Shown: piece by piece, positions 5,769 to 29,969 of the stretch | How the letters are laid out: each line of letters starts with the position of its first letter | How positions within the stretch are numbered: position 1 is the first letter of the stretch | IMG/VR virus record: IMGVR_UViG_3300038431_000007 | Location: 1 to 40,763 of that record | Source: a virus | DNA: 40,763 nt | Direction: 5' to 3' (one strand) | Position numbers and translations under genes: made by a program | The notes under the pieces: generated by a model | The model's database searches: none | What the model saw: the letters and a program-made list of their open reading frames with translations, nothing else | What the model was told of the DNA's origin: nothing

Positions 5769-7076
5769 TTATATAATGGTTCCAATTGGAACCTGTTTAT
5801 TAACTGGCTCTTCTGCTGTCTCATTTGTTATTTTTTCCATTTCTTCTTCTGGATCATCTATCAAAGGATTTAGTTTTAACAAAGTTTCTTTTGAAACCAT
5901 CCCAACCAACGAGATTAACATGTCAACTATCTCAGCTTCATTGATTATTTGAGATTTATTAAATTTTATATTAACTTTTGTTAAATCATCAGGAGGCAAT
6001 TGTTTAAATTCTTTAAATTTATTACTAAAATATAGCATATCCATAATATATCTTTTACATTCCTTGATAAACTTATTACATTTTTGGTCAAGGTTTGTAA
6101 AATAAGCCTTTATTGTAACATTAGTTAAATCCCCACCGGATAACTTTTCAGTATCAACACTATGAGAGAACATATATATATTTTTTCTTAAGATTTCTAA
6201 AAATTCCTTTCTGGCTTGAAAAGGGATTTCATTTGCTATAACTTCAAAGTCCCCACCATCTGAAACATTTATTATTTTATATTTTTTCAAATAATCTATT
6301 AACTCACTCAATGACTGCTCATCTTTTAAAGACTCAGCATAATTAACTAACTTATAAATTACTTCCTGAAAATCAATAAAATTATTTGCAAAATCACTAA
6401 TAGTATAATCATAGGCATCAATTAAACTTTTGATATTATCTAAGTCAGTCATGCCATATCTATTATTTAATAATCTTACAAATGGGATTTTTCCCCAACT
6501 TATACCATTGTCAAGGTGGGTTTCAATTGACTGCTCTATGTACTGAGACCCATTTTTTAAGTAAACATATTTAAAATCATTGTCCCAATATTCTGCATAC
6601 TCATCATCCCCAACCTTATAAGTCCTAATAAGACCGGTTAAGTTCTCTTCTATAGTTCCATCATACAAAGGGATAATTGTTTCAGATTCAACCAACTTTT
6701 GTTTAAATAAACCTTCTCTATCTATCCAAACGAAACACCATCCAACGGATTTCTGGGCTGATTCCTCAGCAACATAATCAATTTCGTCATTTACATCAAA
6801 AGGTAAATCTGCCACATTATCAATGATTACATCTTTAGCCAGGCAATAACTAACTTTTTGGTCAATTATAATTTTTAAAAAATCATTTGCAACTTTTACA
6901 TTTGACCTATAAGTATCTTCAACCTTATTGCCCATATTATAATAGTAAAATTTTCGATTAATTATGTCATTTTCACATTTATAATATCTTTGGCCATCTA
7001 ACATATTTTGATATAAATCAGAACTTATCCATTCGGTTACAATCTTGAATATTTCGTCACCTGTCAAAATATTCAC
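5769..7076 (-). CDS. Portal protein
   Basis: 435-aa ORF immediately downstream of TerL, with an acidic C-terminus. The size and position are typical of SPP1-type portals. The true start may be the TTG at 7067, 8 nt after GGGAGG. Confidence 0.7.
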   Translation of the reverse strand: MNILTGDEIFKIVTEWISSDLYQNMLDGQRYYKCENDIINRKFYYYNMGNKVEDTYRSNVKVANDFLKIIIDQKVSYCLAKDVIIDNVADLPFDVNDEIDYVAEESAQKSVGWCFVWIDREGLFKQKLVESETIIPLYDGTIEENLTGLIRTYKVGDDEYAEYWDNDFKYVYLKNGSQYIEQSIETHLDNGISWGKIPFVRLLNNRYGMTDLDNIKSLIDAYDYTISDFANNFIDFQEVIYKLVNYAESLKDEQSLSELIDYLKKYKIINVSDGGDFEVIANEIPFQARKEFLEILRKNIYMFSHSVDTEKLSGGDLTNVTIKAYFTNLDQKCNKFIKECKRYIMDMLYFSNKFKEFKQLPPDDLTKVNIKFNKSQIINEAEIVDMLISLVGMVSKETLLKLNPLIDDPEEEMEKITNETAEEPVNKQVPIGTII

Positions 7077-7091
7077 CTCCCTATATTTATA

Positions 7092-8372
7092 TTATACTTT
7101 CCTTTTTGGTAAACGCCAACCTTTTGCCATAATAATATCATCTAATGAATATCTAACGGCATCAATTGAGTCATCTTCTAAATCTGGGTACTCTTTTATA
7201 AATTCACCTTGTTTATTTTTTTTGTAAGCATAAAACTTAAATTGTCGATAAACGTCGGGACACCTTTTTTTATCAATATTAATTGCAGACAAATCTTGTA
7301 AATATTTAATACCCCAATGGACCGAATCCTTCCCTTTTTTACAAGCTGTTAAATTTACATCATAAGTATTTTTCAAAGCATCTATTGCCCTTGGTTCTTC
7401 ACAATCAGCCTTTGTAACTACAAAAAAGTTAGACCTTAAATTTATCTCCTCAGCTAGTTTAACATTTGAAATTCCAACTCCAAATATTTGGTCAAAAATA
7501 TCAATTGATTGCCTGGCATTATTATAATTTAATTTAATCCAGGCCGCTGGATGTAAACTAAACCCAAAGTCAAGACCCTGTCTTACTTTCTCAAAATACA
7601 TTGTCTGCTCATCACTAAAAGAGACATTATTAACATTTTTAAAAATGGACCCACCAACACCAGTAACAAGACCCCTATATTCATTATCATATGCAATCGG
7701 GTTAACTGTTTTTAAATACTCAGCTTCCTTTAAAAATTTTGGACCTAACCATTTAATATCAACATCCGTAAAATCTGAGTGGTGGCGAAGTCTTCCGGGT
7801 TTATTTGCATCGGCCTCGATATTGGCCCAATGTTCAAATTCAGGCGGAGGGTTAAATACAAAAAATACAATTGCTTCTCCACCTCTAGCCAAAGATTGAA
7901 CAACATTTCTAATTTCTTTCATTCCTGAAAATTGGTCAAATTCCTCAAATACAATATATTTAATAAAACCTTTTGGAAGTTTAGTTGATTTAATTTTTAA
8001 TGGATCATCACAACCAAAATATAATATTTTTTGCCCACTTGGTTTAAATACCATTTCCATTGGTGAAACTGTGCATTTATAATCTAATGAGAGGCCCAGT
8101 TTATCAATCCCCCATTCAAATTGGTTATAAACTGAGCCTCTTAATGTATTTGCCACTTTTCTAATTACAGCAGTATGCGTGATTTGGCCTCTTTCTTTCC
8201 AATCTTCTAGCATACCAAATGGGATAATTTCTGAATAAAAACTTGATTTGGTGCTTCCTCTGCCACCTGTTAGAATTATTTCGTCAACTTGCCCATCTAA
8301 TACCGGATTTATTAATTTTGTGAATGATGGTGCTATTATATCTTCTAAACAAACATTAGGCATTTTCATCAC
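7092..8372 (-). CDS. terL: Terminase large subunit
   Basis: 426 aa. Walker A-like ILTGGRGSTKSS lies near the N-terminus, with an acidic nuclease half at the C-terminus (..DDSIDAVRY). The gene is adjacent to the portal gene. Confidence 0.85.
   Translation of the reverse strand: MMKMPNVCLEDIIAPSFTKLINPVLDGQVDEIILTGGRGSTKSSFYSEIIPFGMLEDWKERGQITHTAVIRKVANTLRGSVYNQFEWGIDKLGLSLDYKCTVSPMEMVFKPSGQKILYFGCDDPLKIKSTKLPKGFIKYIVFEEFDQFSGMKEIRNVVQSLARGGEAIVFFVFNPPPEFEHWANIEADANKPGRLRHHSDFTDVDIKWLGPKFLKEAEYLKTVNPIAYDNEYRGLVTGVGGSIFKNVNNVSFSDEQTMYFEKVRQGLDFGFSLHPAAWIKLNYNNARQSIDIFDQIFGVGISNVKLAEEINLRSNFFVVTKADCEEPRAIDALKNTYDVNLTACKKGKDSVHWGIKYLQDLSAINIDKKRCPDVYRQFKFYAYKKNKQGEFIKEYPDLEDDSIDAVRYSLDDIIMAKGWRLPKRKV
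7719..7728 (-). repeat. Polar motif copy (plus-strand text CTCAGCTTCC)
   Basis: Minus strand AAAGGAAGCTGAGTA, inside terL, read as K-E-A-E. Confidence 0.9.
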
Positions 8373-10150: not shown

Positions 10151-10609
10151 TTATCCACCTTCCCTAAATCTTGAAAAAACATATTTTTCATTATCATAAT
10201 TTTTAGAACTTGCAAATTCGGGATATCTTTTTATCATTGTTTCAATTGCTCTAATGGCTGCATTTGCCAACGGAACATTATTTAAATTTTCTCTGGAATT
10301 CCTAACAACAGTGGATAAGTATTGCAATAATTCATCAAGGCCAGCAATAGCATATTTTTTGGCGTGTTCCTCTGCTAGTTGTGAGATTCTTTTTTTAACA
10401 TTTGCTTTTTTTAGTGCTGTTTTTCCCATCTTATTTAAATCTTTATATTCCTGACTGGTTAAATCCTCAATAGATTTTTCCGCCTTAAGATTTAAAAGCA
10501 TACCCGACCAATAAGCCGAATCAGTCGCTGACCCTGTTTGAATGAAATATTGACAAAATATTTCCTCCTGGGCCGTAACATCAAAAATAGTTACAACCTT
10601 ATCCCCCAT
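10151..10609 (-). CDS. terS: Terminase small subunit
   Basis: EEIFCQYFIQTGSATDSAYWSGM resembles the helix-turn-helix start of Terminase_2-type TerS, followed by a helical oligomerisation region. I set the start at MGDKVV because GGAAGGTGG lies upstream. Confidence 0.6.
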   Translation of the reverse strand: MGDKVVTIFDVTAQEEIFCQYFIQTGSATDSAYWSGMLLNLKAEKSIEDLTSQEYKDLNKMGKTALKKANVKKRISQLAEEHAKKYAIAGLDELLQYLSTVVRNSRENLNNVPLANAAIRAIETMIKRYPEFASSKNYDNEKYVFSRFREGG

Positions 10610-10805
10610 TAATACCACCTTCCGAATTATCAGGACTAGTAACAATGCCTATTTGAACCAATGTTAAAATTACAAGTCCAACAATTTTGGTTACTAAATC
10701 GGCTTTAACTGTATCAATAACACCAAGTAAAGATAAAATAGTTATAATGTTTCCTATAGTTGCAGTTAAGATGAATTTGTTTTGAAACCTTTTTAAAATT
10801 TTCAC
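10599..10805 (-). CDS. Holin, SPP1-type
   Basis: 68 aa: MKILKRFQNKFILTATIGNIITILSLLGV...LVQIGIVTSPDNSEGG. It has two TM segments. The N-terminal K-R-F-x-N-K motif and the C-terminal GIV-x-(S/D)P tail are typical of SPP1-family holins. Confidence 0.65.
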   Translation of the reverse strand: MKILKRFQNKFILTATIGNIITILSLLGVIDTVKADLVTKIVGLVILTLVQIGIVTSPDNSEGGINGG

Positions 10806-13460: not shown

Positions 13461-13471
13461 AGTTCCACTCC

Positions 13472-13672
13472 TTAAATATTTATTTTTTTATATTCTGAAA
13501 TATTTCTAAAATTAACATTTTTAACTTGCTTTAATTCATCAATATAAAAGGAAATAGACTTTAATAAATCATTAAAAGCCATTTCCTTACTTGATCCAAT
13601 ACCTTTAATTTCTTTTAGTTGATTTAATATCATAATATGATTTTGTCCTATTATCTCGTATTTTATAAACAT
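13472..13672 (-). CDS. Hypothetical protein
   Basis: 66-aa ORF with RBS AAAGGATAAGG. Confidence 0.55.
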   Translation of the reverse strand: MFIKYEIIGQNHIMILNQLKEIKGIGSSKEMAFNDLLKSISFYIDELKQVKNVNFRNISEYKKINI

Positions 13673-13702
13673 AACCGCCTTATCCTTTCTATTTTGAATA
13701 AA

Positions 13703-13751
13703 TCTTAGCTTCCTTGATTTGGTCCAACCTTACACCACAAGGAAGCTAAGA
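13703..13751 (-). terminator. 14-bp perfect inverted repeat hairpin (TCTTAGCTTCCTTG / CAAGGAAGCTAAGA), terminator-like
   Basis: The arms are 13703-13716 and 13738-13751 with a 21-nt loop. On the minus strand the hairpin is followed by TTTATT. The arms are built from the relaxed polar motif. It lies between the ERCC4 gene and the next gene. Confidence 0.5.
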
Positions 13752-13776
13752 ACCCACCCACCCCTTACCTCACTAT

Positions 13777-17185: not shown

Positions 17186-17656
17186 TTAACGATAATTAAT
17201 TTTTTTTATTTCATATTTATAATTCTTATCAATTGAATAACTACAAAATTTATTTGAACATATTTTTGTATTATTATCACCTTTTAGAAAATTTACTATA
17301 GATGTATCATTAACATATAATTTACTATTGCAAATAGGACAAATATTATTATCATAATCACCAACTAAATTATATCCCTTTTTATCCATGAAATTATATT
17401 CTGGTTTATAAATTTCTATATATTTTAATTCAATATTAATCAATCTGCCTATTTTCTTAGTTCTATGTATAACTTCAAATTTAAAGTTATCTTCACCATA
17501 TTTATTGAATGCGTTTTGTAAATATTTACTATGATGTTTATTATTTTTAAGAGAATTAAAATGGCTATACTCTCTCTTACTAAAATCTTTAGTACTACCA
17601 ATATAAATATGATTATTTACAATATTTCTTATAATATAAATTCCTGATTCAATCAT
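17186..17656 (-). CDS. GIY-YIG homing endonuclease (free-standing)
   Basis: SGIYIIRNIVNNHIYIGSTKDFSKREYSHF...NAFNKYGEDNFKFEVI is a classic GIY-(10)-YIG ... R ... N module. The C-terminal CPICNSKLY...CSNKFCSY is a zinc-ribbon DNA-binding part. I set the start at MIESG because GTGAGGA lies upstream. Confidence 0.85.
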   Translation of the reverse strand: MIESGIYIIRNIVNNHIYIGSTKDFSKREYSHFNSLKNNKHHSKYLQNAFNKYGEDNFKFEVIHRTKKIGRLINIELKYIEIYKPEYNFMDKKGYNLVGDYDNNICPICNSKLYVNDTSIVNFLKGDNNTKICSNKFCSYSIDKNYKYEIKKINYR

Positions 17657-17792
17657 TTTTATCCTCACTTTTTTTAATATATTCTTTCATTAGTTTTATT
17701 AATACATTTGTCATTGTTCTCCCATCACAAGCAATATTAAATTTTTCTTTTAATTCAGATTCAACTTTAAATCTTATATAATCATCTTTCAT
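17649..17792 (-). CDS. Ribbon-helix-helix small regulator (putative)
   Basis: MKDDYIRFKVESELKEKFNIACDGRTMTNVLIKLMKEYI fits an RHH fold pattern. RBS AAGGGGTGA is present. The track ORF begins further upstream at 17843. Confidence 0.5.
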   Translation of the reverse strand: MKDDYIRFKVESELKEKFNIACDGRTMTNVLIKLMKEYIKKSEDKND

Positions 17793-17840: not shown

Positions 17841-17903
17841 CAAAATTAAAAACTCAAAAAAATTAATCTATTTTTATCTCAATTTTCCGTTAAAATATAA
17901 AGT

Positions 17904-17960
17904 CAGTCATAATGCGGCTTTCAGACATGGCTTAAAACCAGTGATAATGCGGCTTTCAAA
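17904..17960. repeat. Two 22-nt direct repeats (cagtSataatgcggctttcaRa), 35-bp period
   Basis: 17904-17925 is cagtcataatgcggctttcaga and 17939-17960 is cagtgataatgcggctttcaaa. They lie in the 360-bp non-coding stretch between the divergent promoters and the gene at 18201. Confidence 0.85.
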
Positions 17961-19420: not shown

Positions 19421-21592
19421 CTATAATCCCCTTCTAATTAATTTATTTAATTCAGCTCTAGCAATTTCAAATTTATACATAGTTTGTTTTTTAGCTTCCT
19501 TTTCTGTAACATCATTTGATAATAAATTAAAGAAATATTTTAATATCTTAGTTGGGTTAAATTTAATCCTATTATCAGTATTATAATTATCTGATAATTG
19601 TAATTGTTCAAAGTCAGCATTGATATTTGATTTTACATAATTTATCATTTTAGTTAATTTATTTTTTATATTTTTTTCACCTAATTTAATAATTTTATCT
19701 TCCATGAAATTATATTTGATACCATTTCCATTTTTTGACTCAATGTATTTTTGAACAATTGATTCATCTTCACCAACCAAGATTAATGATTTGTATTTTT
19801 GGTTTGTTCCTCTCTCAATTCTTCCGCCTGATTGTATAACATTTCTAAAACTTGCAACTTCAATATCTGTAAACCAAAAATTATTATTATGTATAACAAC
19901 CCGGCCTTTTGCGTTTATTTCTGGCCTAGTATTAATAATACATAAATTAGATTCCTTGTAATTTTTCCCGGTGGCCTCTGGACCATTTAAATAAGAAATA
20001 TGTGTAAAATCTTTTACAAAATCATAATTTTCATTCGATCCAAGATTTCCAGAAATTGAAAGCATATCAATTCCACCATCATTAATTCCAGTCTTAACCT
20101 TTACACCGGCAAATTTTTTATCTTTATATTTATATCTTAATTTTTTGTCAGTTAAAAGAATTTCAACATTTCGTTTTTCAGCACAAAAGGCCAAACAATT
20201 AATATCATCTTTATAATCAACCATCATATCAATTGAAATATTTGTAATTAATTTATCAATTGCTTTATCTCTTTGAATAAAAAATACGTCAATTATTTCT
20301 ATTGGATTTACTTTTTTTGTTTCTCCATTTTCAATAAAATAATCAATTTCTTCTAAATTGTAGGGTGTAGCTGTTAAAAAATATTTTTCACATTTAATAG
20401 TATCAAGTATACTTTTTCTTCTAATAATCAGATATCTTTTATATAAATCCCTAGATTCATTAGTAAGTTGGGTTAAAAGTTTGTCGTATTGGTCAACTGA
20501 CATATTATCCATACACCATTTTATAAAATCTTCCCTAGTATCAAATTCAAATATTGGCTCATCTGTAATCGGATCTAATAGTTTAATGATTTGCTCAACT
20601 CTGACAACCCCATGACTAGTCATAATTAATTTGAATAAATCTTCTGACTCAACGTTAAAATGACTTATATTGTTTGGCATTAATAACTCACCCTTATAAA
20701 CTCTCAATAATCTAAATTTATTTTTTAAGGCTGAAAATGTAAAGCCAATTCTTCTCCCAGTATCTTCAATTGTTTTACTGGTAAAATAAAATTCATTAAT
20801 TATATTATCAATATTTAAAATTCCGTCTCTATCTAATACATATGTGGGAGTTTCATAATCACCCTCTTTACTAAATCTGATTTGTGAGTTTTCTAGTGGT
20901 AATTCATACCGACATGTATTTATATTTTCAGAATAATATCTTTTATCCCTTGATGAAAAACAATTATTTGATACTCTTAACATTTCACCATTTGAAATTT
21001 TAACCTTTTTGTAATAGTTATTCATTGAAATATTTATATAAGCCCTAGCTTCGTATTCGTCGGCCTCATCAATAATAATTACATCATCTGGCTTTATTAT
21101 CTCAGCCAACTTTTTTATATTATTAAAATATATTGGACTATCACCATTATTATAAAAATAACTATGATTTGTAATAATTATCCTAGCTTCCTGGAATGAT
21201 TCTTTTGATATTTTGTTGTAACTAACCATTTTATTAATATTTATCTTTTTTAAAAAAACTTTTCCAACATTTTTATCAATATCAGGACCTAAAAACGGCA
21301 TTAAATTTTCGGTCATGGTTGTAAACTTTTTTAAATTTGAAACAATCTCAAATAATAAATCCTCAACATTATCATTTTTTGTTGTTGCAATTACAACTTT
21401 TTTATCTGTATAGAAAAGATAATATAAGGCAAGATAAGCAGAATTATATGTTTTACCTTCACCAGTGTTATATTGCATAGCTTTTTTATTATTAATTATT
21501 TTACCCTGGAAAAAAGAAATATTATTTTCTAACCTAATGTTATTTTTTACCTCTTCAAACCAATTAATTTGACTTTTATCAATATTTGACAT
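19421..21592 (-). CDS. SF2 helicase, DinG/XPD-like motif order (no Fe-S cysteines)
   Basis: The motifs are Walker A NTGEGKTY, IIITNHSYF, DEAD box VIIIDEADEYE, motif III FLTATP and motif VI QSGGRIERG. I set the start at MSNIDKS because GGAGG lies 8 nt upstream. About 230 aa with no recognisable motif lie between motifs II and III. Confidence 0.6.
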   Translation of the reverse strand: MSNIDKSQINWFEEVKNNIRLENNISFFQGKIINNKKAMQYNTGEGKTYNSAYLALYYLFYTDKKVVIATTKNDNVEDLLFEIVSNLKKFTTMTENLMPFLGPDIDKNVGKVFLKKININKMVSYNKISKESFQEARIIITNHSYFYNNGDSPIYFNNIKKLAEIIKPDDVIIIDEADEYEARAYINISMNNYYKKVKISNGEMLRVSNNCFSSRDKRYYSENINTCRYELPLENSQIRFSKEGDYETPTYVLDRDGILNIDNIINEFYFTSKTIEDTGRRIGFTFSALKNKFRLLRVYKGELLMPNNISHFNVESEDLFKLIMTSHGVVRVEQIIKLLDPITDEPIFEFDTREDFIKWCMDNMSVDQYDKLLTQLTNESRDLYKRYLIIRRKSILDTIKCEKYFLTATPYNLEEIDYFIENGETKKVNPIEIIDVFFIQRDKAIDKLITNISIDMMVDYKDDINCLAFCAEKRNVEILLTDKKLRYKYKDKKFAGVKVKTGINDGGIDMLSISGNLGSNENYDFVKDFTHISYLNGPEATGKNYKESNLCIINTRPEINAKGRVVIHNNNFWFTDIEVASFRNVIQSGGRIERGTNQKYKSLILVGEDESIVQKYIESKNGNGIKYNFMEDKIIKLGEKNIKNKLTKMINYVKSNINADFEQLQLSDNYNTDNRIKFNPTKILKYFFNLLSNDVTEKEAKKQTMYKFEIARAELNKLIRRGL

Positions 21593-21663
21593 AAAATAAC
21601 CTCCATAGTTTAAATTGAGTATTTTTAAATTTTTCGAGTATCTCAATTATAAACTTTTTCTTT

Positions 21664-24218: not shown

Positions 24219-24247
24219 TTGACAGCTTAAGAAATAAGTTATATAAT
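24219..24247 (+). promoter_or_regulatory. Consensus promoter TTGACA-17-TATAAT
   Basis: AAATTAGGTTGACAgcttaagaaataagttaTATAAT is followed by the hairpin tacagagg..cctctgta (24251-24278). It shares the GGTTGACAGCTTA box with the promoter at 17120. Confidence 0.65.
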
Positions 24248-24307: not shown

Positions 24308-24826
24308 ATGAAAAAAATAATAAATTATGACAAAAACGAAATAAAACATATACATCTAACTAGTATTATATCAGATTATATTGTAAATGATAAAAAAATG
24401 AGGGTTGATATAGGTTATATTTATGAATATTGCCCCTTTTGCACTCATAAAAATCATTTTCAAATAAATACTAAAGAAAATCTTTATAACTCTTTTAATG
24501 GTTGTTGTAAAGGTGGAGACATAATAAGTTTTGTTATGGAGGTTGAGGGCCTAAACTTTAAACAAGCAATTGAAAATTTAGGAGATAGATTTAATATTAA
24601 TAAAACCTCAACAAATTTGGAATCATCATCAAAGAGAGAGAGAGAAATTTTAAAAATATTATCTGAGTATGAAGAGGACCGATTAAAAAAAGAGGAAAAC
24701 AGATTCTTTGATTTTCTAAAATTTATGGAATATGAAGATATATTTTTTAAGGCATTACCTCTGGTTGGAACTGATAAATTGATACACTATATTTATAATT
24801 TGAAAGGAATGGGGATCTATGAATAA
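24308..24826 (+). CDS. CHC2 (DnaG-type) zinc-finger protein without TOPRIM domain
   Basis: CPFCTHKNHFQINTKENLYNSFNGCCKGGDIISFVMEVEGLNFKQAIENL matches the primase CHC2 zinc finger. The remaining ~90 aa are helical, with no catalytic motifs. Confidence 0.65.
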   Translation: MKKIINYDKNEIKHIHLTSIISDYIVNDKKMRVDIGYIYEYCPFCTHKNHFQINTKENLYNSFNGCCKGGDIISFVMEVEGLNFKQAIENLGDRFNINKTSTNLESSSKREREILKILSEYEEDRLKKEENRFFDFLKFMEYEDIFFKALPLVGTDKLIHYIYNLKGMGIYE

Positions 24827-25723: not shown

Positions 25724-26134
25724 CTAAGACCTCCATATTCTTAAAATAATTTTGTAAGGGAAAAAATATCTTAAACCGGCCGGAGTTGTCATATCAAGTA
25801 AATGATGCCCCAAGATACCTAGGCCCATGCCTAAAACAAATGAGACCTTATAAAATATTGCAAATGGTATTAAGGTTAAAATGCTATGAAATAAAGCTCC
25901 TCTATGGCTTGTAATTGGGTTATCTGGTAATATTTTTTGTATGATTTTAAATATCTTTGGTATGATTGGGCATTTTTTATTAAATGTTGAATACTCTGCA
26001 TCTATATCTGGAACAAATGACCCAATTACAACTCCTGATATAGTTATTAATTCTGTTAATAAATCATCTTTCATATAATAAATTGTTAAGGCTGAGACAA
26101 TAGCCGCCCCAACACTATGACCCTTTTTATTCAT
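25724..26134 (-). CDS. YdjM/DUF457-family membrane-bound metal-dependent hydrolase
   Basis: KGHSVGAAIV, VPDIDAEYS, SHRGALFHSILT and GHHLLDMTTPAGLRYFFP line up with the conserved H / PDID / HRG..HS / H..(A/L)D..TP.G blocks of E. coli YdjM as I remember it. Confidence 0.75.
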   Translation of the reverse strand: MNKKGHSVGAAIVSALTIYYMKDDLLTELITISGVVIGSFVPDIDAEYSTFNKKCPIIPKIFKIIQKILPDNPITSHRGALFHSILTLIPFAIFYKVSFVLGMGLGILGHHLLDMTTPAGLRYFFPYKIILRIWRS

Positions 26135-26223: not shown

Positions 26224-26441
26224 TTCAGATCCTCCCTTTTATAAAAATATGGTTTTGATTCTACACAATAACACACTTCAGAATTAGGACATTCCATTAT
26301 TTTAAATTTTTTACATTGTAAACAACTGGGCTTACTTTTAGTAAATTCATTATGGAATTTTCTTGTTACAATCTCAATTTCATTTTCATCATATCCAAAC
26401 ATTTCAAACAATTGTTTTAATGAATCATTTATTATTGACAT
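26220..26441 (-). CDS. 73-aa cysteine-rich protein
   Basis: MSIINDS...CLQCKKFKIMECPNSEVCYCV is a putative zinc ribbon. The track ORF extends to 26495, but this start overlaps the upstream AbrB-like gene in operon fashion. Confidence 0.5.
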   Translation of the reverse strand: MSIINDSLKQLFEMFGYDENEIEIVTRKFHNEFTKSKPSCLQCKKFKIMECPNSEVCYCVESKPYFYKREDLK

Positions 26442-26601
26442 AATTTGCCTCCTCTTCCGGTGTTGCCGCCTCAATAATGTATTTGCCGTTTTCAATAGTT
26501 ATCTTTACTATTTTACCTAATTTTAAAAGTTCTCTTTCATATTTCGCCAGTATTACACACTTACTGCTTCCATGTTTTTGTAATCTTTTAAATATTTCCA
26601 T
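26425..26601 (-). CDS. Second AbrB/SpoVT-like small protein
   Basis: This ORF is not in the track: MEIFKRLQKHGSSKCVILAKYERELLKLGKIVKITIENGKYIIEAATPEEEANYVNNK. An RBS of the GGGAAGGGA type is present. It is the first gene of the leftward operon. Confidence 0.45.
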   Translation of the reverse strand: MEIFKRLQKHGSSKCVILAKYERELLKLGKIVKITIENGKYIIEAATPEEEANYVNNK

Positions 26602-26622: not shown

Positions 26623-26651
26623 TTGACATATACTTATAGTATTAGTATAAT
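26623..26651 (+). promoter_or_regulatory. Consensus promoter TTGACA-17-TATAAT (rightward, FtsK-like operon)
   Basis: Plus strand TTGACAtatacttatagtattagTATAAT, with RBS AAGGAGG before the ATG at 26695. Confidence 0.7.
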
Positions 26652-26672
26652 ATAAGTACGCTTAAAAAGCAA
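26644..26672 (-). promoter_or_regulatory. Promoter TTGCTT-17-TATACT (leftward)
   Basis: Minus strand TTGCTTtttaagcgtacttatatTATACT. Its -10 box (26644-26649) overlaps the -10 box of the rightward promoter. Confidence 0.55.
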
Positions 26673-26694
26673 CATAAATTAAGGAGGTTAGAGG

Positions 26695-28452
26695 ATGTTA
26701 ATAACTAAATTTGAAATAATTACAAGTGTTATAAGTGCCGGAGTATTACAATATTTTGGATTTAATCCTCTATATGGTTTTATTTTTATTCCAATGGTTA
26801 AGGTTTTAAAATTTTCCATGGAAAAGCAAAAAAAAAGAAATAAGATTTTTTCATTTTTAAGACTTACAAAACAATATTTTTATTCAAAGGATTTCAGGGG
26901 TGTAATAGGTTTCTTTTTGTTCTTTGAGTCTTTGGCCGGGATTGGGTTTTATTATAAAATTGTTGGCTTATCAACTTTTTTGATTCCTTTTGGCCTCTGT
27001 TATCCTGCAGATTTGTTAAGGAATAATTTATGGGAAATTAAAAAGACTAATAAAATGACAGAAAATTTAATTGATTTTTATAAAGATGAAATTTTAATTA
27101 TAGAAAACGTCGGGGGGATCTTGACAGTAAATTCAAAAATCCCCCTAGATGATAAAAATAAAGCGGTTTTTGCTATTTGCTGTAACTCAACAATTACCAG
27201 TATAACACAGGATATCAAAAGAAAATATATTTACTATGTAAAACATAGGCCCGGTCAAGAAGACAGATACAACAAACTAGAAAAAGGAAGTCGGGAGAGA
27301 CTTGAACAAATATTAACGGACCTAAGGGGAAAACCAAATTTTGTAAATTCATTAACCGATAAATTTCAAGATACATATATTTATAATTCCAGATTGAAAT
27401 TAAAGTTTATGAATAGGGAATTAGCAGATATAACCCATAAATTAGGACTTAAAAAGGGCCGTTTAGAAATTATAACAAATGAGGGACATTATGAGTTTAA
27501 AATTAAAAAATGCCTCAATATTATGTATTATTTGGATGATGTAATAGAAAATACAAAAAAGCCAAAAGATATGATTTTACCTTTTATTGTTGGATGTGAA
27601 AATGCCACTGGTAAAGTTATTATAATGGACCTTACAAAATTAACACATATTTTACTTGGTGGAATGACTAACACCGGTAAAAGTTGCACAATTAACACCT
27701 GGTTAGATACTTTATTATATTGGAACTATGACAAGATTCTTTTATTTATAACTGACTTTAAACATTCGGCTTTAATGAAATATAAGAAAATTAAAAATTG
27801 TTGTTTGATAGATGATTCAGAGCAGGCACAAATGGAATTTTACGGCAACTTATTTAATGAGTTAATCAGAAGAAGGAATTTATTTGAAAGAGTGGCCGAA
27901 GAATTAGATGTTGAATGTAGAGATATACACGACTATAACAGATTATATCCAAATAATCCATTACCTTATATCATAGTAACCACCGACGAAATAAACACAG
28001 CTTGTCAAATGAATTACACAAACAAATATACAATCGGCGGCATGGATGTAACATATGAGGATATACGGGCCTATTTCTTTACTAAATCAAGGTCATTGGG
28101 TATTCACTTGATAGATGTAATTCAAAAGGCAACTGCCGGCCAATATTTTAAAACTTGGAGGGCCTCAATTGATACCAGAGGAGCCCATAAAATGGCAGAA
28201 GAGTCTGAGTTAAAATATGTTTTGGAACTTGCCAAGGAGTTTTATGAATTTGCAATGGGACAGGACCAAGGGGAATTTTTATTTAAGGACCATTTGAGCC
28301 AAATATATAAATTAAAGGGGTGTTTTATAGATGAAAAACATAATAAAGTATTTGAGGCAATTAAAGAAATTGGCTTCAGAAAAACTGCAAGAAAAACCAT
28401 TAAACAACCAGTTGAAATTGAATCCCCTATATCCAATAAAACCACCTTATAA
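26695..28452 (+). CDS. Membrane-anchored FtsK/SpoIIIE-like P-loop DNA translocase
   Basis: The N-terminal ~110 aa carry 3-4 TM segments. Walker A is HILLGGMTNTGKSCT, Walker B is YIIVTTDEINT, and RSLGIHLIDVIQKAT follows. This is the order and spacing of FtsK/TraB-type ATPases. Confidence 0.7.
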   Translation: MLITKFEIITSVISAGVLQYFGFNPLYGFIFIPMVKVLKFSMEKQKKRNKIFSFLRLTKQYFYSKDFRGVIGFFLFFESLAGIGFYYKIVGLSTFLIPFGLCYPADLLRNNLWEIKKTNKMTENLIDFYKDEILIIENVGGILTVNSKIPLDDKNKAVFAICCNSTITSITQDIKRKYIYYVKHRPGQEDRYNKLEKGSRERLEQILTDLRGKPNFVNSLTDKFQDTYIYNSRLKLKFMNRELADITHKLGLKKGRLEIITNEGHYEFKIKKCLNIMYYLDDVIENTKKPKDMILPFIVGCENATGKVIIMDLTKLTHILLGGMTNTGKSCTINTWLDTLLYWNYDKILLFITDFKHSALMKYKKIKNCCLIDDSEQAQMEFYGNLFNELIRRRNLFERVAEELDVECRDIHDYNRLYPNNPLPYIIVTTDEINTACQMNYTNKYTIGGMDVTYEDIRAYFFTKSRSLGIHLIDVIQKATAGQYFKTWRASIDTRGAHKMAEESELKYVLELAKEFYEFAMGQDQGEFLFKDHLSQIYKLKGCFIDEKHNKVFEAIKEIGFRKTARKTIKQPVEIESPISNKTTL

Positions 28453-28831
28453 TTCTGGCTTTAGTGAAAAACACCTTGACAATTTTTTGAATCAAAAGTC
28501 AACTATTATATATGTTGAAAATGGCGGCGGCGGCGAATGTGATGTTATTTCTCCGGAAAATATAGAAAATTACACAGACGAAAACCGCCAAGACTTTAAA
28601 AATAAATCAAAACAAACACAGTTTGAAATGCTTTACCAGTACATGAGAAACAAGGCGGACCCAGATAACATTTATACTAAGGAAGGCAATAGAGAAATAG
28701 GCAACTATTTCAATGTTGGAAAAGATTTAATAAGTCAAAGATTTAGGGAATTACTAGAATTAAATTGGATTTCAGAGGTAACCGAACTAAACCGCAAATA
28801 TAAATTACTAAGGGAGGATAATCATGAATAA
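28331..28831 (+). CDS. Hypothetical protein with C-terminal winged-helix-like region
   Basis: 166 aa with RBS AAAGGGGTG 9 nt before the ATG. It overlaps the FtsK-like gene by 122 nt. GNREIGNYFNVGKDLISQRFRELLELNWI looks like an HTH/wHTH. Confidence 0.5.
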   Translation: MKNIIKYLRQLKKLASEKLQEKPLNNQLKLNPLYPIKPPYNSGFSEKHLDNFLNQKSTIIYVENGGGGECDVISPENIENYTDENRQDFKNKSKQTQFEMLYQYMRNKADPDNIYTKEGNREIGNYFNVGKDLISQRFRELLELNWISEVTELNRKYKLLREDNHE

Positions 28832-29822
28832 TATTGATAAATTAAAGGCAAAAATTAAAAAAGTAAAAGTTGATAATGAATTAATCACAGTTAGAAGACA
28901 TATGAAAAAATTACAAAATGAAAATAGACTTGATTTAAATGTTAAATTATGGGGATGGGTATTTGGTTTAATAGGGTTTTTGGGCTTTTTAGCCTCAACA
29001 AGTATGTCGATTGCCGGGGGACTAAAAAGCCACAAGAATTTAGCTTTGATTGCTTTTGTGATTGGGGTTGTTTTCATTCAACTAGTAGTTTATGTGTTTT
29101 GTATTAAAGAATCAATCATAAAATATAGATTTCCAAGATATTATTTAATTGCTAAAGCAGTCCAATTGGGCCTTCTTGCAATCTCAATAAATTACAATTA
29201 TGAATTTTATGATAAAAAAAACTTTTGGAATTTCTTATTATCTGTATTGTTAGAAGTGGCAATAATTGTAATTACAACAATTGGGGGAGATTTCAGATCC
29301 TTAAATTATCAGGACCAAAAAATTATCGAAGATGGCGGATTATTTTCAATAATTGCAATGTGGTGGTTTAATAAATTGCATAAACTAAAAGTTAAGATTT
29401 TAGACGAATATAACCAAAATATTATAAACTTAACCCAACCAATAGAGTTAAGAAAAAACTTAACTATTTCTCCGGACAACTTAACCAGTGAAAAAATACA
29501 AATTGAGGATTTCCAAGGGTTAGGGCTGGTTAAGTCGGAGTTAAGTTCACCGGTTAAGTTAGAGTTAGGAAAAGTTAAGTCGGAGTTAAGTCCTGAGTTA
29601 AGAAAAGATAAGACAATAATTCTATTAAAAGAAAAGAATTTAGAAGAGTTAAGATTTGAAATTGAAACTTATCTAAAAGAAAACTTCAAGGAAGGGGAAA
29701 TTATAACAACTGGTAAAATTAGGGAAATATTTGATTTAACAGAATCTCAATGGAAAAAAATTAAAAATGATTTGAATTGTGTTGAGACAATAGGGACAAA
29801 ATTAAAGTATAAAGTGTTATAA
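28824..29822 (+). CDS. Polytopic membrane protein with repeat-bearing cytoplasmic tail
   Basis: 332 aa with RBS GGGAGGA and about four TM segments (aa 45-170). VKSELS repeats follow, then a C-terminal wHTH-like end (KIREIFDLTESQWKKIKNDL). Confidence 0.65.
   Translation: MNNIDKLKAKIKKVKVDNELITVRRHMKKLQNENRLDLNVKLWGWVFGLIGFLGFLASTSMSIAGGLKSHKNLALIAFVIGVVFIQLVVYVFCIKESIIKYRFPRYYLIAKAVQLGLLAISINYNYEFYDKKNFWNFLLSVLLEVAIIVITTIGGDFRSLNYQDQKIIEDGGLFSIIAMWWFNKLHKLKVKILDEYNQNIINLTQPIELRKNLTISPDNLTSEKIQIEDFQGLGLVKSELSSPVKLELGKVKSELSPELRKDKTIILLKEKNLEELRFEIETYLKENFKEGEIITTGKIREIFDLTESQWKKIKNDLNCVETIGTKLKYKVL
29427..29653. repeat. GTTAAG / CTTAAC iteron-like cluster (candidate origin) inside the 332-aa gene
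   Basis: At least 10 GTTAAG or CTTAAC hexamers lie within ~225 bp. They include the 18-mer GTTAAGTCGGAGTTAAGT twice (29530-29547 and 29575-29592) and the palindrome agttaag-aaaaaa-cttaact (29447-29466). Confidence 0.6.
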
Positions 29823-29863
29823 TAAAATCAAATTTAATACTTGCCTATGTTTAAAGATATATT

Positions 29864-29902
29864 AAAAAAATAGCCTATTAATTTTAATAAGGCTATTTTT
29901 TT
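29864..29902. terminator. Bidirectional intrinsic terminator
   Basis: The stem aaaaaaatagcctatta / taataaggctattttttt has one bulge. It lies between the convergent 332-aa (+) and 148-aa (-) genes. Confidence 0.75.
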
Positions 29903-29969
29903 ATTAAATTTTCCCTAGGGGGAGAAAACTAAATAAATTTTTTCTTTTTCACTATTTAAATTTTACTTG

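Follow-up and report, generated by a model that had tools for sequence, protein, structure and literature searches.

We analysed a 40,763-nt stretch of viral DNA (IMG/VR record IMGVR_UViG_3300038431_000007, positions 1 to 40,763; hereafter the window), a siphovirus genome with its own TerL, and focused on a three-gene operon that encodes a 585-aa FtsK/SpoIIIE-family ATPase (gene 1), an overlapping 166-aa protein (gene 2) and a 332-aa four-transmembrane (4-TM) protein ending in a winged helix (gene 3). As the main finding, the third gene contains an array of short direct repeats that is under selection at the DNA level, and the repeated motif changes between lineages together with the third protein and not with the ATPase. 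Judging from these sequence patterns, we consider the array to be a cis-acting DNA element, with the gene 3 winged helix as its most probable binder. The reading that we favour for the whole operon, with a probability of roughly 38%, is that it would form a membrane-based system that tethers and pumps the phage's own double-stranded DNA (dsDNA), by analogy with TraB/clt/SpdB2 of Streptomyces.

Over about twenty years, hundreds of tailed-phage genomes, that of the diagnostic anthrax Gamma phage included, have been annotated with FtsK/SpoIIIE-like genes, and we know of no tested function for any of these genes. Such genes in phages that possess a TerL are already common and annotated, and are not new; the roles given to them in the literature (DNA translocation, sporulation, injection) are speculation only (PMC4113786, PMC3853050, PMC11526630). 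What is new here are the partner proteins, which have no detectable homologues in the known PHROG 1358 cassette, and the lineage-specific repeat arrays. The present clade offers what the known cassettes lack, namely a candidate cis site and a candidate binder in the same operon; the predicted binding specificity swaps naturally between lineages, and the function of the cassette becomes experimentally tractable. The initial annotation of this DNA, made from the letters alone, had pointed out that a translocase with membrane and (winged) helix-turn-helix (HTH) partners is not explained by the canonical phage life cycle, and this still stands, with no role assigned.

The repeat array within gene 3

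The eight direct copies of GTTA(A/G)G lie just 5′ of the part of gene 3 that encodes the winged helix (Table 1). They are spaced at 10, 11, 13, 11, 10, 11 and 12 nt, approximately one helical turn, and alternate between two reading frames, encoding V-K as ...GTT AAG... and E-L-S as ...gaG TTA AGt.... Outlying copies are found at 29391, 29447 and 29648, and three inverted copies, read from the sequence, at 29429, 29460 and 29478. The motif occurs 23 times on the plus strand genome-wide, and 11 of these copies fall within gene 3. When synonymous codons were resampled with the peptide kept fixed, the observed count was never reached (0/5000 and 0/3000 for the window). Four other lineages carry arrays at the same position with different motifs, giving five motifs in five lineages: GGTTC(A/G)AA in three frames in locus L008, ATGTAAT in two frames in L006, ACTAACTC in two frames in L030, and AAGTCT(A/G) in one frame at 21-nt spacing in L001. 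In L008 and L030, all plus-strand copies of the locus are confined to the gene 3 linker. The resampling control was likewise exceeded in each of the five lineages (0/3000 each), and the arrays of four orthologues showed a strong excess of the rare codons GAG and AAG (Fisher 1.6e-7 and 5e-6). At the level of codon statistics, these results showed that the array is under DNA-level selection, for which the peptide alone does not account.

L001 and the window share 74% identity in genes 1 and 2 and 29% in gene 3, and carry different motifs. Comparison of the loci showed that the motif covaries with the third protein, not with the ATPase, and we conclude that gene 3 and its candidate site constitute a putative swappable specificity cassette.

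The repeats could instead be a by-product of a low-complexity linker, generated by slippage or duplication and devoid of cis function, in which case gene 3 would encode a generic membrane-tethered regulator. The repeats indeed encode a disordered linker, the L001 copies keep to one frame, and three distant relatives are without arrays. However, the same 7–8-mer is found in two or three frames in four of the five lineages, the 10–13-nt spacing is not a multiple of three, the motif is kept at the price of the rare codons GAG and AAG, and it is retained across orthologues of ~55% identity, and we thus regard this explanation as quite improbable.

The initial annotation had proposed a polar motif as the orienting signal of the translocase. 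This motif is probably the 14-mer TCTCAGCTTCCTTT (AAAGGAAGCTGAGA in the coding sense), of which 12 copies with two or fewer mismatches are present (Table 1) versus 0.38 expected. Its orientation is always fixed relative to transcription, and the copies lie mostly inside open reading frames (ORFs), where they apparently encode K-E-A-E-like stretches. A genome-wide search for a skewed 7–10-mer resembling the FtsK-orienting polar sequences (KOPS) yielded coding-strand bias only, with no 8-mer beyond it. The proposal is unconvincing, as AAAGGAAGCTGAGA simply tracks the direction of transcription inside ORFs, and the gene 3 array is a far better candidate for the cis site. Two copies of the 14-mer form an inverted pair at 13703–13751 (14-nt arms, 21-nt loop) in the intergenic region 13461–13776, which could be a terminator or a regulatory hairpin.

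The operon, the ATPase and its partner proteins

The promoter and the three ORFs described by the initial annotation are all present in the window (Table 1). Within 21–31 kb, only two 12/12 promoter matches occur, and the operon promoter is kept as TTGAC(A/T)-17-TATAAT in six of the seven related loci. The second perfect match (24219–24247) lies just 5′ of a primase-like gene (24308–24826), within a plus-strand helicase-primase block. Downstream, a terminator-like inverted repeat sits between the operon and convergent minus-strand genes, in the most AT-rich part of the region.

Table 1. Positions of the operon features and of other elements mentioned in the text (window numbering; (-) marks 14-mer copies as listed)
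Feature	Position	Strand	Remarks
Sigma-70-type promoter TTGACA-17-TATAAT	26623–26651	+	exact 12/12 match
Ribosome-binding site AAGGAGG of the FtsK-like gene	26681–26687	+	read from sequence; AAGGAGG kept in relatives
Gene 1, 585-aa FtsK/SpoIIIE-family ATPase	26695–28452	+	ORF
Internal ribosome-binding site AAAGGGGTG of gene 2	28314–28322	+	formed by Lys-Gly codons of gene 1
Gene 2, 166 aa	28331–28831	+	ORF, overlaps gene 1
Gene 3, 332-aa membrane protein	28824–29822	+	ORF
Core repeat array, eight direct GTTA(A/G)G	29519–29602	+	within gene 3
Terminator-like inverted repeat AAAAAAATAGCCT / AGGCTATTTTTTT	29854–29912		23-nt arms, 87% complementary (inverted repeat I19)
TerL	7092–8372		structural block also with portal, major capsid protein and tape-measure protein
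TerS	10151–10645		assignment weak
14-mer copies	5930, 7718, 8888, 12109, 12974, 13703, 13738(-), 16358, 19489, 24938(-), 30541, 39924

The 585-aa protein matched PF01580 (FtsK_SpoIIIE) in Pfam at 1e-9, with 38.6 bits versus a cut-off of 24, and its best PHROG match was PHROG 1358 'FtsK/SpoIIIE-like' (1.9e-25, aa 169–559). Since true members of PHROG 1358 score 1e-106 to 1e-136, the protein is a distant relative of this family. In the PDB, FtsK was matched at 8e-8 and a 'DNA translocase coupling protein' more weakly at 3e-5, and NCBIfam and PADLOC gave domain-level matches only (EssC, FtsK, SspH); the PADLOC matches were restricted to the ATPase domain (SspH at 4e-18, and mads8), with none for the partner proteins. 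The alignment with PDB FtsK paired GGMTNTGKS and DE, RS.GIH with KARAAGIH, and IQKAT with TQRPS. The Walker A motif GGMTNTGKS (K329), the Walker B DE (431–432), R466, Q477 and R495 are invariant in the seven homologues, and R466 aligns with the Arg of FtsK KARAAGIHL. As the initial annotation had proposed, the profile matches and intact motifs of the RecA-like ATPase domain (Walker A, Walker B, arginine finger and the conserved polar residue after strand 4) place this membrane ATPase in the FtsK/SpoIIIE family (FtsK-HerA superfamily), and since the catalytic residues are invariant in the homologues, it is predicted to be an active oligomeric ATPase.

The ATPase domain spans approximately aa 290–560, and ~25 residues remain after it. 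Pfam reported PF01580 alone, with no gamma domain (PF09397), FtsK_4TM or FtsK_alpha in the 585-aa protein, and the gamma-domain-like winged helix that the initial annotation had suggested looking for is thus missing. The cellular FtsK proteins among the database matches carry PF17854, PF13491 and PF09397, and their similarity to the 585-aa protein is just ~1e-6. Hydropathy analysis gave two membrane segments above the threshold (aa 69–87 and 89–107) and a weaker hydrophobic stretch at aa 8–34; of the three to four segments predicted earlier, two are clear, and the full number is plausible but not certain.

The first 122 nt of gene 2 lie within gene 1, in its +1 frame, and in all related loci this frame is open and the protein is kept. 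The start codon is an ATG within the gene 1 codons for F-I-D-E/D and is conserved, except for a GTG in L008, and the ribosome-binding site AA(A/G)GGGG is kept in all seven loci, with the Gly codon always being the rare GGG. The N-terminal motif INPLYPIKPP.NS.FSE.HL.NFL...GGGG is also conserved. Gene callers overlooked or shortened it in a number of contigs, the window's own source record among them. We also considered whether a programmed +1 frameshift might join gene 2 to the ATPase as a 'gamma domain' supplied in trans, and rejected this, because the conserved start and ribosome-binding site explain the gene 2 frame and make such a fusion unnecessary. The 166-aa protein had no match in Pfam, PHROG or the PDB, and what remains of the winged-helix-like C-terminus suggested earlier is a three-helix HTH-like core (aa 94–143) modelled by AlphaFold2 at low confidence.

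For the 332-aa protein, hydropathy and AlphaFold2 were in accord: a basic helix at the N-terminus is followed by four membrane helices (aa ~40–159), a repeat linker (aa ~200–270) and a winged helix (aa 273–329, nt 29640–29810), bearing out the four membrane segments and VKSELS repeats of the initial annotation. The linker carries the VKSELS-type repeats and is disordered at aa 202–270 (predicted local distance difference test, pLDDT, <50). The C-terminus was modelled as an H-S-H-H-S-S winged helix with pLDDT 70–81, and its profile matched GntR/FadR/MarR winged helices in the PDB at 1.8e-4; the winged-helix-like end read from the letters is thus a genuine winged helix. Since the membrane helices are even in number and the N-terminus is positively charged, this domain is predicted to be cytoplasmic. 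The AlphaFold2 models were poor overall (pLDDT 60 and 52), and a Foldseek search of the models against the PDB gave nothing significant, only local winged-helix or HTH similarities. Remote homology comparisons of gene 3 with the gene 2 protein, SpdB and the small protein of L025 were also negative. The gene 3 family amounts to 83 clusters among 1.84 billion representative proteins, and the ten clusters that were looked up were unnamed or 'hypothetical protein'.

Among 5.8 billion proteins, the gene 1 ATPase had only seven close homologues, all encoded on 12–44-kb metagenomic phage contigs that are syntenic with the window except for the divergent L008. The operon is present in every related contig recovered, and this clade has no detected integrase. 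No ATPase relatives were found in 185,579 species reference genomes, in which prophage copies were sought; further viral and metagenome scans for loci gave no contigs beyond those recovered, and four scans for additional gene 3 relatives found none. Gene 3 relatives adjoin FtsK-like genes in three further lineages with differing gene orders: beside an FtsK-like gene on a 70-kb viral contig (L025), as a pair between the lysis genes and the integrase of a temperate phage (L028/29), and in the order third gene, ATPase, overlapping small gene (L030/31). Near the FtsK-like gene of L025, a 419-aa ORF (7089–8348) has the Cys-rich end ...AYTSQTCSHCGH...CQSC..., which we take to resemble TnpB/IS200-605 OrfB-type proteins.

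Possible roles of the operon

In the mechanism that we favour, the 332-aa protein would reside in the membrane, and its cytoplasmic GntR-like winged helix would bind the helically phased array in its own gene, fixing the phage DNA to the membrane. The membrane-anchored ATPase, which lacks a gamma domain, may assemble on the tethered DNA as an oligomeric motor and pump it with ATP, and the 166-aa protein, translationally coupled to the ATPase gene in which its own gene starts, would act as an adaptor or a regulator of the motor. Such a mechanism would be akin to that of TraB/clt/SpdB2, and to the loading of FtsK at KOPS or of SpoIIIE at the SpoIIIE recognition sequences (SRS). Its likeliest purpose would be to move or retain the phage genome across a membrane or septum, for instance into a forespore, a daughter cell or between cells. 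The domain identities, intact ATPase motifs, gene overlap, array selection, motif covariation and gene co-occurrence are results of the analysis; the binding partners, the oligomeric state, the pumping direction and the biological purpose are inferred. If the mechanism is true, FtsK-type motors would serve phages in placing or shifting their genomes at membranes. In a further extension, the trio would deliver naked phage DNA without a virion across a septum or between cells of low-GC bacteria, as a phage counterpart of the TraB/Spd spreading of Streptomyces with a swappable tether-and-site cassette, which we consider unlikely.

Several observations weigh against tethering and pumping. The proposal was drawn from sequence and models, and the models are of low confidence outside the gene 3 winged helix. 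The phage looks virulent, as an integrase was not found, which makes a need for segregation questionable. The comparison with Tra/Spd, already drawn in the initial annotation, fits in architecture but not in detectable homology: hhalign gave 0.2% against pIJ101 SpdB, and 21% (E 1e-3) against pIJ101 Tra, covering the ATPase core only, with no detectable homology to a TraB winged helix. Arrays were not found in the three more distant gene 3 relatives (L025, L026, L028). While gene 3 relatives do lie beside FtsK-like genes in further lineages, the one in L026 follows int-xis and has no nearby FtsK-like gene. Finally, the codon signal could owe a part of its strength to recent tandem duplication; this is disfavoured because arrays recur in independent lineages and persist across the ~55%-identical orthologues.

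The main rival is a membrane-attached replication origin, in which gene 3 would encode the initiator, the array would be an iteron origin, and the ATPase and the small protein would open, load or organise the DNA; if true, this would provide a membrane-embedded replication initiator. An iteron-like array in the gene of a sequence-specific binder is the classical layout (SPP1 gp38, oriL; PMC6316719). Of the gene 3 family members sampled, 3/30 weakly matched HTH_36 and 1/30 weakly matched Phage_rep_O; the window protein itself matched no initiator family. Furthermore, no other initiator is recognisable in the window, which in this respect has no more than a RecD-like helicase, a DnaG-type primase and Erf, the L026 relative occupies the usual position of a rep gene after int-xis, and the Bacillus phage counterpart of the partner carries the annotation 'replication initiation protein'. 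However, L028 has, alongside its FtsK cassette, a separate and complete replisome-organizer and DnaC-like module, so that the gene 3/ATPase pair cannot be the main initiator of its replication, and the FtsK cassette of Wbeta is likewise accompanied by DnaD-like and DnaC-like loaders. No initiator that is a polytopic membrane protein is known to us, nor is a role of FtsK-family motors in initiation. In a search for an AT-rich unwinding element beside it, the array proved GC-richer than its surroundings; 60-mers 3′ of it go no higher than the 89th percentile for AT, and strongly AT-rich DNA is found at the nearest ~200–300 nt away. Weakened by the separate replication modules of L028 and Wbeta, the origin explanation appears somewhat unlikely to us.

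A motor for DNA entry was also considered, in which the operon, expressed early from the first-entering DNA, would pull the remainder through the membrane with the array as an oriented loading site. The conserved promoter is a strong one of the host's sigma-70 type, the motor and the predicted DNA binder are both membrane proteins, and the same idea has been raised for the FtsK-like gene of phage Pony (PMC3853050). On the other hand, the contig assembled as a circle (127-bp overlap) and gives neither genome ends nor a packaging mode, the homologous cassette of Wbeta lies in the middle of a linear record, and nothing points to interrupted injection. We give this possibility little credence.

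The operon could alternatively be a superinfection-exclusion or defence 'moron', with a membrane ATPase and DNA-binding partners that intercept incoming foreign DNA. PHROG files PHROG 1358 under 'moron, auxiliary metabolic gene and host takeover', the cassette forms its own unit between the lysis genes and the integrase in the temperate relatives and in Bacillus phages, and FtsK-type domains occur in the defence proteins SspH and MADS. Nevertheless, the PADLOC matches are limited to the ATPase domain, the operon is present and syntenic throughout a clade without a detected integrase, and a specific cis array that the phage itself carries, and that covaries with the predicted binder, suggests action on the phage's own DNA. 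A defence role is thus very unlikely in our estimate, and tethering and pumping remains the explanation that we prefer.

The surrounding genome and known systems

The window has an exact terminal direct repeat of 127 bp (1–127 = 40637–40763), and since its first and last 127 bases are identical, it represents a complete, circularly assembled genome of 40,636 bp, with a GC content of ~30%. In addition to the structural block (Table 1), it encodes an Amidase_3 endolysin for lysis and a DNA-handling set composed of a RecD/Dda-like helicase, a small DnaG-type primase, Erf, an ERCC4-type nuclease and a ParB-methyltransferase. Among the window ORFs screened, there was no match to an integrase, a partition ATPase, a VirB4/DUF87 ATPase or a relaxase. 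When the operon and a 25-kb part of the window were compared by megablast with 50,697 phage records, no close DNA relative emerged, and the matches of the portal protein, in metagenome-assembled genomes of Clostridia, were of only 22–23%, too low to name a host.

Divergent from the operon promoter lie genes for a 58-aa protein (26425–26601, minus strand), AbrB/MazE-like by eye and with a sub-threshold Arg_repressor as its sole Pfam match, and for a YdjM-family membrane protein (25724–26134, minus strand); the positions of both are kept in relatives. A GIY-YIG homing-endonuclease gene is located at 17186–17668 on the minus strand, and in the relative L006 a different GIY-YIG gene (6943–7644) is inserted directly 3′ of the third gene of the operon. 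The segment 17669–19016 has few long ORFs, very AT-rich segments and two 26-nt direct repeats (17898–17923 and 17933–17958), and is another candidate regulatory or origin region. A 741-aa protein encoded at 19421–21646 (minus strand), kept as 720–722-aa versions in relatives, has no PHROG or NCBIfam match and weak ResIII and DinG-like matches, and may be a divergent helicase or replication protein.

A tblastn search with the 585-aa protein gave matches in 184 phage records. PHROG 1358 includes the ATPases of Wbeta/Gamma, Pony, Finn, Geobacillus PK3.6 and Bacillus phage 1, mostly with one N-terminal membrane segment, and in 105 Bacillus, Geobacillus and Staphylococcus phage records the ATPase gene is followed by an overlapping Replic_Relax gene (PF13814, PHROG 2190), as in Wbeta/Gamma wp22-wp23, Pony gp26-27, Geobacillus PK3.6 gp25-26 and Bacillus phage 1. 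The concern of the initial annotation that the trio might be a routine replication module of well-studied phages is thus justified in part. By descent, the present operon is a distant, divergent relative of this FtsK-like/Replic_Relax cassette of Bacillota phages. PHROG 1358 is the best family of the 585-aa protein over nearly the whole soluble part (hhalign probability 94%), the ATPases share an N-terminal membrane anchor and the absence of a gamma domain, the ATPase gene runs into the next gene downstream (overlap of 62–95 nt there versus 122 nt here), and the cassette forms its own transcription unit beside late genes (lysis there, tail here). In contrast, the partner here is not Replic_Relax: the overlapping gene has no Pfam or PHROG match, and genes 2 and 3 each gave 0.1% probability by hhalign against an alignment of seven Replic_Relax sequences. 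The present operon also has the additional 4-TM winged-helix protein with its repeat array, no such arrays being found in the Bacillus FtsK-like cassettes examined, and an ATPase with two to four membrane segments that is ~150 aa longer. The Replic_Relax proteins (Wbeta wp23, L012 3137–3769; L013, L015, L016, L018) show a (P)D...E(I/V)D.QQK pattern that by eye recalls PD-(D/E)xK nucleases.

Cellular FtsK/SpoIIIE with KOPS/SRS shares with gene 1 the ATPase family, the Walker A and B motifs, the arginine finger and membrane anchoring, whereas gamma, FtsK_4TM and FtsK_alpha are absent here, and one clustered site replaces dispersed polar motifs. FtsK-like coupling proteins of Gram-positive type IV secretion systems (TcpA/Orf21 type) are encoded in clusters with VirB4-like ATPase, relaxase and cell-wall hydrolase genes, and the best plasmid match of the ATPase (26% identity) lies in such a cluster; the window ORFs screened include neither VirB4 nor a relaxase.

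In lambda, the origin (ori) lies within the gene of the initiator O. In SPP1, repeats are located inside the gene of the DNA-binding protein gp38 that uses them (oriL), in the linker-coding part (PMC6316719). Gene 3 resembles both in carrying direct repeats inside the gene of a predicted DNA-binding protein, but this protein is a polytopic membrane protein without a Phage_rep_O or gp38 match, and its 6–7-nt units one helical turn apart differ from iterons of ~20 bp.

The closest architectural match is offered by Streptomyces TraB/clt/SpdB2 (pSVH1, pIJ101), which we take as an analogy. SpdB2, a partner of TraB, has four TM segments, a coiled coil at its N-terminus and a dsDNA-binding domain at its C-terminus, and the clt site consists of direct 8-bp repeats to which TraB binds (PMC4447253). 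In the present operon, the recognition domain is on separate proteins and not fused to the motor, the setting is a low-GC tailed phage without plasmid functions, and, unlike the specific recognition that we predict, DNA binding by SpdB2 is non-specific. Both systems nevertheless combine a membrane FtsK-like motor with a 4-TM partner that has an N-terminal helix or coiled coil and a C-terminal DNA-binding domain, short direct repeats as the cis site (here a candidate, with predicted recognition by the winged helix), and translationally coupled genes.

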